Numbered from the stretch's first letter, positions 30 to 150 are shown. The stretch is 35,543 nucleotides of DNA from a virus (IMGVR_UViG_2582581022_000006); one strand, 5' to 3'. Program-made: numbers and translations. Notes: a model not told the origin generated them from the sequence alone.

Positions 30-60
30 GTCTCTTGATCAGGAGATCTGATCAAGAGAC
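30..60. repeat. Perfect 13-bp inverted repeat (GTCTCTTGATCAG / CTGATCAAGAGAC) with 5-nt spacer; right arm lies within a 19-mer (44-62) matching the IS50/Tn5 inside end as I recall it
   Basis: Read directly: arms at 30-42 and 48-60. The IS50 inside-end identity relies on memory of CTGTCTCTTGATCAGATCT. Confidence 0.5.
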
Positions 61-150
61 AGCCGCACAGGGGGATTCACCATGCCAGTTTCTTTTAACA
101 AACTCCCCGCAAAACAGACAACTGTCAACCGTCTGAATTGTGAGACATTT

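Follow-up and report, generated by a model that had tools for sequence, protein, structure and literature searches.

A palindrome at the edge of a prophage sequence as the right end of ISEc13, and structured ends and targets among related IS50-type elements

The window, by which we mean the whole stretch of 35,543 nucleotides analysed here (IMGVR_UViG_2582581022_000006), opens gatatggttgagggttacctggtgatgaaGTCTCTTGATCAGgagatCTGATCAAGAGACag. Its first 114 positions hold the end of a transposase gene, a perfect palindrome and a portion of an sRNA gene (Table 1). Positions 1247–35543 are a Mu-like (transposable) prophage lying within the lambdoid antiterminator gene Q, whose ORF is shortened to 628–1212. 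Compared with the RefSeq sequence of Escherichia coli E2348/69, the window splits after ...gctgccctttt, and the insert starts with TGATTAGACTTGAG at 1247. The Mu-like prophage has gp16-family and Mor-family genes and is 99.7–99.9% identical to prophages of ST131 and other strains; the junction between Q and this prophage is absent from the complete RefSeq E. coli genomes. The opposite end of the Mu-like prophage falls outside the window.

By direct reading, AGATCTGATCAAGAGACAG occupies window 44–62. Its reverse complement, CTGTCTCTTGATCAGATCT, occurs once with zero mismatches in the whole window and is absent, even at three mismatches or fewer, from 100 of 100 dinucleotide-preserving shuffles. 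An earlier note on this DNA had named it as the inside end of Tn5/IS50, read in reverse complement. We took the IS50 ends from a real Tn5, reached by tblastn with the Tn5 transposase: on plasmid pO86A1 an IS50 adjoins aph(3')-IIa; this IS50 ends ...atcaagatctgatcaagagacag, and its inside end reads ...atcaagATCTGATCAAGAGACAG. From this copy the inside end (IE) is CTGTCTCTTGATCAGATCT and the outside end (OE) CTGACTCTTATACACAAGT, and window 44–62 matches the former (L084:2024-2042) at 19 positions of 19. The palindrome that surrounds it had been described as a perfect 13-bp inverted repeat with a 5-nt spacer, and the repeat finder returns just this, two arms 100% complementary. A perfect 13-bp repeat with a 3–10-nt loop is expected 0.002 times per window copy (first-order Markov, 1000 simulations). 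Folded as RNA, the palindrome reaches −24.8 kcal/mol, with z = −4.8 against shuffles.

Table 1. Features at the left edge of the window, with positions counted from its first nucleotide
Feature	Position	Strand	Description
Transposase gene, 3' end	1–51	+	last 16 codons DMVEGYLVMKSLDQEI and TGA stop (49–51); remainder upstream of the window
Right terminal repeat (IRR) of ISEc13	44–62	.	read from the tip, CTGTCTCTTGATCAGATCT; 19/19 with IS50 IE; putative site of transposase binding and cleavage
Palindrome, inner (5') arm	30–42	+	GTCTCTTGATCAG; within codons aaG TCT CTT GAT CAG (Lys-Ser-Leu-Asp-Gln)
Palindrome, spacer/loop	43–47	+	GAGAT
Palindrome, outer (3') arm	48–60	+	CTGATCAAGAGAC; inside the terminal repeat, holds the stop codon
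GATC (Dam) sites, three	37–40, 45–48, 50–53	.	direct reading
Target-site duplication, right-hand copy	63–70	.	8 bp, CCGCACAG; boundary at 62/63
STnc100-type sRNA gene, 5' portion (flank, outside the IS)	63–114	-	Rfam RF02076; split by the insertion

E. coli O127:H6 E2348/69 shares window 1–1240 at 100% identity, both the 62 bases visible at the edge and the 1178 bases of flank that follow. In this strain a CDS annotated by PGAP as "IS4-like element ISEc13 family transposase" ends at L001:6051, which corresponds to window 51; the gene has 457 uninterrupted codons and its translation ends ...LQDMVEGYLVMKSLDQEI*. The upstream transposase gene that the earlier note proposed to look for is found in E2348/69, as a 457-amino-acid member of the ISEc13 family. 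Window 1–62 is almost certainly the last 62 bp of ISEc13, an element of the IS4 family, IS50 subgroup. That this identity holds and that the tip is also the end bound and cleaved by the transposase is, taken jointly, very likely. As we infer from the identity of window 1–1240 to E2348/69, the source locus would carry a complete ISEc13, of which 62 bp fall inside the window; from these 62 bp, a truncated copy is a less probable alternative.

The window itself holds only the last 16 codons of the transposase, and the protein and motif analyses were done on the E2348/69 copy. Against the solved Tn5 transposase structures in PDB this protein gives E = 7e-83, and it is 39% identical to the Tn5 protein. 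The Pfam domains Tnp_DNA_bind and DDE_Tnp_1 are above threshold, Dimer_Tnp_Tn5 is slightly below it (24.1 bits for a cut-off of 26.7), and the NCBIfam IS4 model NF033590 scores 511.6 bits for a cut-off of 160. The Y(2)R(3)E(6)K motif is found as Y316-x2-R319-x3-E323-x6-K330. ISEc13 of E2348/69 is 1550 bp long; its left repeat (IRL), CTGTCTCTTATACACAAAT, matches the IS50 OE at 17 positions of 19 and keeps the DnaA-box sequence TTATACACA. The IS50 subgroup has been defined by ends CW------Y---CA-A--W-, a length of 1350–1550 bp and direct repeats of 8–9 bp (De Palmenaer et al., PMC2266710). IRL and IRR both start 5'-CT and both fit this pattern; the 1550 bp and the 8-bp duplication also lie within the limits of the subgroup.

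The duplication is read from the comparison of filled and empty sites, which places the tip of the element at 62/63. The filled site of E2348/69 reads ...cccctCCGCACAG–IS–CCGCACAGggggatt and the empty site of strain M1/5 ...gcccctCCGCACAGggggatt, so that CCGCACAG, present once in the latter, stands on both sides of the IS in the former. The 62 bp that the earlier note had called visible are those on the element's side of the boundary. IS50 proper was considered and rejected: the transposases are 39% identical and the conservation is limited to the 19-bp ends. In ISfinder, two copies count as one IS only if their identity is very high; since the transposases are only 39% identical, ISEc13 is an element distinct from IS50.

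The puzzling motif at the window edge is in this way resolved as the tip of a catalogued IS, not of a new element. ISEc13 is a common and already named element, and its presence here is a real but ordinary find: of 5426 complete E. coli genomes, 2992 contain ISEc13-related DNA, at up to 32 places per genome, and E2348/69 has roughly 30 copies. A look-up of the exact protein returned two short contigs only. The eight papers that mention ISEc13 name it once each and are devoted, by their titles, to other topics; we came across no description of its end hairpin or of its target choice, and literature searches by the names of IS50-subgroup relatives were equally unproductive.

The earlier note had left several other explanations on the table: an IS50-family remnant, a recombination footprint or a separate structured site, and, as a refuting circumstance, a conserved piece of lambdoid late regions. 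The family was rightly seen; the remnant was not, as the identical E2348/69 locus carries an intact element. Nor does a footprint fit, the E2348/69 element having 1550 bp, both repeats, an open frame and the 8-bp duplication. Within the window, the 29 nucleotides that precede the palindrome continue the transposase frame and are identical to the full copy. As for a separate structured site, the palindrome consists of the ISEc13 terminal repeat together with the final codons of the transposase gene, and relatives conserve it. The lambdoid explanation is refuted by the closest related prophages without the IS: among the matches listed, they lack positions 1–62 and with them the palindrome, and align from 63 only, at about 94% identity. 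An isolated remnant or footprint of the IS50 family, or a conserved lambdoid piece, is thus very improbable, even though a footprint comparable to what the remnant reading supposes does exist elsewhere, in E. coli HS; the inner arm begins AAG in the window and CTG in that footprint.

The HS sequence is a solitary 35-bp perfect palindrome, CTGTCTCTTGATCAG-GAGAT-CTGATCAAGAGACAG, between trmL and lldD (L217:1499-1533). It consists of two tips of the inside-end type, with CTG at both, without a transposase gene and in unrelated flanks; about 834 records have this allele, and other alleles of the locus are devoid of the palindrome. The left repeat of ISEc13 and its inner arm have in common the direct repeat GTCTCTT, and a deletion between these two copies would leave exactly the HS palindrome. 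The latter is best explained, from its sequence, as the scar of such a deletion. Tn10 is known to leave a remnant by "nearly precise excision"; the origin of the HS palindrome would be similar, by deletion between short direct repeats, its mechanism being read from the sequence. Another related locus lies near iro in strain UTI89 (L002:2524-4062), where a frameshifted ISEc13 copy has the same right junction, GAGACAG/CCGCACAGG. This copy is 87.5% identical over window 1–152, its flank being much more diverged, and it has an unrelated left flank and no duplication; an ancient insertion that was later rearranged could account for it, or else a hot spot used more than once.

ISEc13 interrupts a lambdoid prophage, with the phage tRNA cluster on one side of it and the lysis genes on the other. 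The empty site of M1/5 contains an STnc100 sRNA gene (RF02076, L003:2853-3052) that scores 140.2 bits over the full model, for a gathering score of 47; the interrupted copy scores 24–26 bits, with a 101-nt insertion in a hairpin loop. The IS sits in the first STnc100 hairpin loop, and the duplication corresponds to the loop and its closing pair. In Rfam no family covers 30–62, the sole match touching the region being STnc100, aligned on the flank with the IS as insertion. The prophage STnc100-type gene has therefore lost its intactness through the insertion of ISEc13, and the lambdoid prophage was damaged twice, by ISEc13 in the late region and by the Mu-like prophage in Q.

The likeness to IS50 allows the working of the tip to be proposed. 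The transposase would be a Tn5-like cut-and-paste DDE enzyme, and the tip, from 62 to 44, its inside-end-type binding and cleavage site, by analogy with Tn5. It would pair unlike ends, an OE-like left end with the DnaA box and an IE-identical right end, cut after ...CAG-3' at 62 and join the element to a staggered target, which would give the 8-bp duplication seen here. The two elements have the same domain architecture, and in both the transposase stop codon lies inside the end. Two of the three GATC sites of Table 1 are inside the terminal repeat, at the same positions as in the IS50 IE. Transposase binding is inhibited when the GATC sites of transposon ends are methylated by Dam, as stated in a passage of PMC3347997 that cites Yin et al. 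1988. The use of the ISEc13 end is probably sensitive to Dam methylation in the same manner, and DnaA binding at the left end is predicted likewise by carry-over from IS50. We also observe that the 19-bp inside end is identical for transposases that are 39% identical, so that the ends are far better conserved than the protein reading them. The terminal 14 bp, TGATCAAGAGACAG, are nearly invariant in 80 related loci, down to 43% protein identity. If confirmed experimentally, the full conservation of the 19-bp IE at 39% transposase identity would interest the transposon field.

What IS50 does not have is the 13-bp palindrome: its right end forms a stem of 5 bp only (GATCA/TGATC, z = −1.35). We therefore turn to the relatives of ISEc13, 80 loci from Enterobacterales, Vibrionales, Alteromonadales and others, with 43–99% protein identity. 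Most of those above about 49% identity have, a few codons before the stop, an inverted copy of the tip, (A/C)(A/T)GTCTCTTGA, encoding Lys/x-Ser-Leu-Asp/Glu. A perfect stem of at least 8 bp with the element tip as 3' arm is found in 31 of 52 unique right ends; the stems counted have 8 to 14 bp and the loops 5–16 nt. In 17 of the 52 there is no stem: these are the Photorhabdus/Xenorhabdus group and most relatives at 48% identity or less. In L082, a distant relative, an unrelated hairpin of 9 bp occupies the position of the stem. As the stem is absent from IS50 and from these 17 right ends, it is not essential for a transposase of the IS50 type.

The codons of the inner arm were compared in 57 unique aligned genes, by ranking 133 conserved four- or six-fold degenerate columns by the frequency of their commonest codon (median 0.37). 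Leu453 (CTT, 0.90) ranks first and Ser452 (TCT, 0.89) second, while their neighbour Ala450 is only 88th; in the stem-less group the matching residues are coded TCA/TCG and GTG/GTT. This invariance of the Ser and Leu codons indicates that the nucleotides of the inner arm are themselves under constraint, whether from selection or from a persistent bias of mutation. On the evidence of these codons, the complementarity of the arms is held at the nucleotide level across relatives. Confirmed experimentally, this would mean that synonymous sites reveal a terminal stem-loop maintained in most relatives. Third in rank among the 133 columns is another leucine codon, Leu444 (CTT, 0.81), aligned to ISEc13 residue 444 and found in the context ATC CTT GAA GG in relatives L019-L063. 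It lies about 27 nt before the inner arm, and its CTTGA could also pair with the tip; it is absent in ISEc13.

One explanation of the inner arm, which we find improbable, is that of a second, subterminal DNA site for the transposase, decoy or architectural, that regulates the use of the right end. The inner arm of ISEc13 is indeed a copy of IRR positions 3–15 in the opposite orientation, 13 of the 19 positions of the binding site, with the CT tip missing, and certain Vibrio relatives have the CTG tip in their inner arm as well. In most relatives, however, it copies repeat positions 3/4–11 only and leaves out 12–19, which we take to be those read by the N-terminal DNA-binding domain of the Tn5 transposase in the Tn5 co-crystal. 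Positions 1–2 of the inner copy are besides mostly AA rather than CT (28 and 23 of 38 relatives respectively), and it is separated from the true end by anything between 5 and 16 nt; we know of no subterminal sites for Tn5. The poor copying of 12–19 and the AA in place of CT thus speak for a hairpin rather than a second transposase site, and the variable loop length favours a single-strand hairpin over the site of a dimeric protein.

A role in transcription termination is not supported for the palindrome. An intrinsic terminator was rejected, the stem having 46% G+C and being followed by AGCCGCACAG on the plus strand and TTCATCACC on the minus strand, without T-run; the terminator scan of the region found nothing at the palindrome. 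The search for sigma-70-like promoters found none in or around the element, which leaves a promoter within the palindrome, whether reading outward or inward, without support. Elsewhere, the scan of viral contigs for the spaced palindrome pattern gave no match, and the metagenome scan with the 14-mer TGATCAAGAGACAG gave 120 loci, of which 6 encode a relative, the rest being mostly chance matches.

The reading that we favour, tentatively and with somewhat less than even confidence, is that the 3' stem-loop works in the transcript, giving the transposase mRNA an exonuclease-resistant end that keeps the stop codon and does not depend on the flank. The reading frame enters the terminal repeat, and its last codons have been kept complementary to repeat positions 3–15; the end of the element is in this way a stem of 13 bp with a loop of 5 nt, and the stop codon lies within this structure. 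The terminal repeat could in this manner serve as half of a 3' stem-loop protecting the mRNA; with the reading frame running into the repeat, there is no room for a conventional terminator. IS200, IS10 and IS50 have secondary structures at their ends that limit the expression of transposase, located at the 5' end of its gene. The ISEc13 stem-loop would resemble them in being built into the IS end and acting on transcripts; it differs by its location at the 3' end, its lack of a T-run and the use of the terminal repeat as one arm.

The main competitor of this protective role is a quasi-palindrome without function, kept perfect by template switching during replication, one arm being copied from the other. 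In E. coli, short quasi-palindromes are known to mutate by templated correction; as selection for transposase binding would hold the outer arm constant, the inner arm would be repeatedly "corrected" on it. Several observations agree with this. The arms hardly vary, so that they provide no evidence of covariation, and the inner arm tracks an invariant outer arm. The length of the stem drifts from 8 to 14 bp between lineages, and entire clades, like IS50, have lost the stem and show no sign of being defective. Finally the few mismatches between arms carry no signal for an RNA strand: G.U pairing would accommodate 1 of them on the sense strand, 6 on the antisense and 5 on neither. On the other hand, the top ranks of the Ser and Leu codons over about 49–99% identity would require a very persistent correction; the unrelated hairpin of L082 occupies the same position; and the stem co-occurs with a functional-looking terminator at the left end, both end hairpins being present in 28 elements, neither in 9, the right one only in 2 and the left one only in 2. 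None of these three points is decisive, and we consider a functionless quasi-palindrome unlikely without dismissing it.

The left-end hairpin just mentioned is, in ISEc13 of E2348/69, CACAAATCCCC-ACCC-GGGGATTTGTG (L001:4525-4550), and it overlaps positions 13–19 of the repeat. In the relatives (L006-L083) the stem sequences mostly differ, and a T-run and TTGAAC follow directly in most. From these features it looks like a terminator against incoming transcription. With its T-run, the hairpin of the relatives resembles the left-end terminator of IS200, which stops incoming transcription; it also resembles the preferred target of the element itself. Other terminator-like hairpins with T-runs are observed on the antisense strand of the transposase gene (L001:5425-5443, 5488-5506 and 5586-5598, minus strand), for example GGCGGGC-TGCCC-GCCCGCC then TTTTTG. 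As judged from their structure, these could stop transcription entering from the right end.

The choice of target was analysed on the empty sites reconstructed from relatives with both flanks (L011-L083, L207-L216). In 19 of 20 reconstructed sites the duplicated bases, numbering 8, 9, 10 or 13, extend across the loop of a hairpin that is stable. The targets fold with a median energy of −16.8 kcal/mol, and 600 windows drawn from those flanks with one of −8.2 (Mann-Whitney p = 1.3e-10). For one Vibrio element, 9 of 9 independent copies lie atop textbook terminators—A-run, G+C stem, T-run—with duplications of 9, 10 or 11 bp and cuts that lie some 4 bp within the A- and T-runs. Several of the terminators used as targets are located between convergent genes. 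The pattern of the ISEc13-clade targets is roughly AAAGCCY / N9-11 / RGGCTTT. As far as reconstructed sites tell, the ISEc13 clade inserts into the loops of G+C-rich hairpins, for the most part rho-independent terminators, with duplications of 8–13 bp. What is recognised might be a pair of half-sites flanking the target, some 4 bp into the A-run on one side and the T-run on the other, and such half-site recognition would produce duplications of variable length, 8–13 bp.

IS50 makes 9-bp duplications, unlike the 8–13 bp in hairpin loops of ISEc13 and its relatives. IS4, IS231A and IS186 have consensus targets; these three and ISRm22 use palindromic or REP targets like the ISEc13 clade, but they belong to other subgroups of the IS4 family. 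PMC1525189 gives a weak target preference for IS50 and insertion into REP palindromes for ISRm22. In part of the IS4 subgroup the two target arms, left and right, are strikingly conserved (PMC2266710), in agreement with the pattern of the ISEc13-clade targets; the same review of the family gives the IS50 subgroup 8–9-bp repeats only, and the word "terminator" is absent from it. We found in the literature no description of terminator or hairpin-loop targeting for the IS50 subgroup. It is possible, at a little under an even chance in our estimation, that the ISEc13 clade represents a Tn5-like lineage that joins structured ends, a stem-loop at the right and a terminator-like hairpin at the left, to homing on the loops of terminators and of other G+C-rich hairpins, a combination undescribed for this subgroup. 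If true, the element would land where little harm is done and bring its own transcript-end structures. Should experiments confirm it, insertion into terminator loops with variable duplications would bear on target capture by Tn5-type elements. Only the conserved terminal stem-loop and the terminator-loop targeting appear worth a follow-up by specialists.

For ISEc13 itself, four new right flanks were obtained from five extra copies, on plasmids and a chromosome, with no left ends paired. The window and these four other distinct flanks all have a G-rich run (GGGG, GAGAGGG or GGAGG) that begins 8–9 nt from the tip.

Some features of the window that lie farther from the insertion may be added. 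Between two good tRNAs, ARAGORN places a tRNA-Lys(ttt) at 280–355 on the minus strand, which is missed by the Rfam tRNA model and left unannotated by PGAP in E2348/69; being undetected by both, and related prophages having a tRNA-Arg there, it is probably a decayed tRNA. The Mu-like prophage contains other perfect inverted repeats, at 12379–12413 (13-bp arms) and 8738–8765 (12-bp arms), and a direct repeat of about 75 bp (ctgagcagcgccacggacagtcaatcagaaactgagg...) at 35300–35375 and 35470–35543, in an apparent tail-fibre gene.
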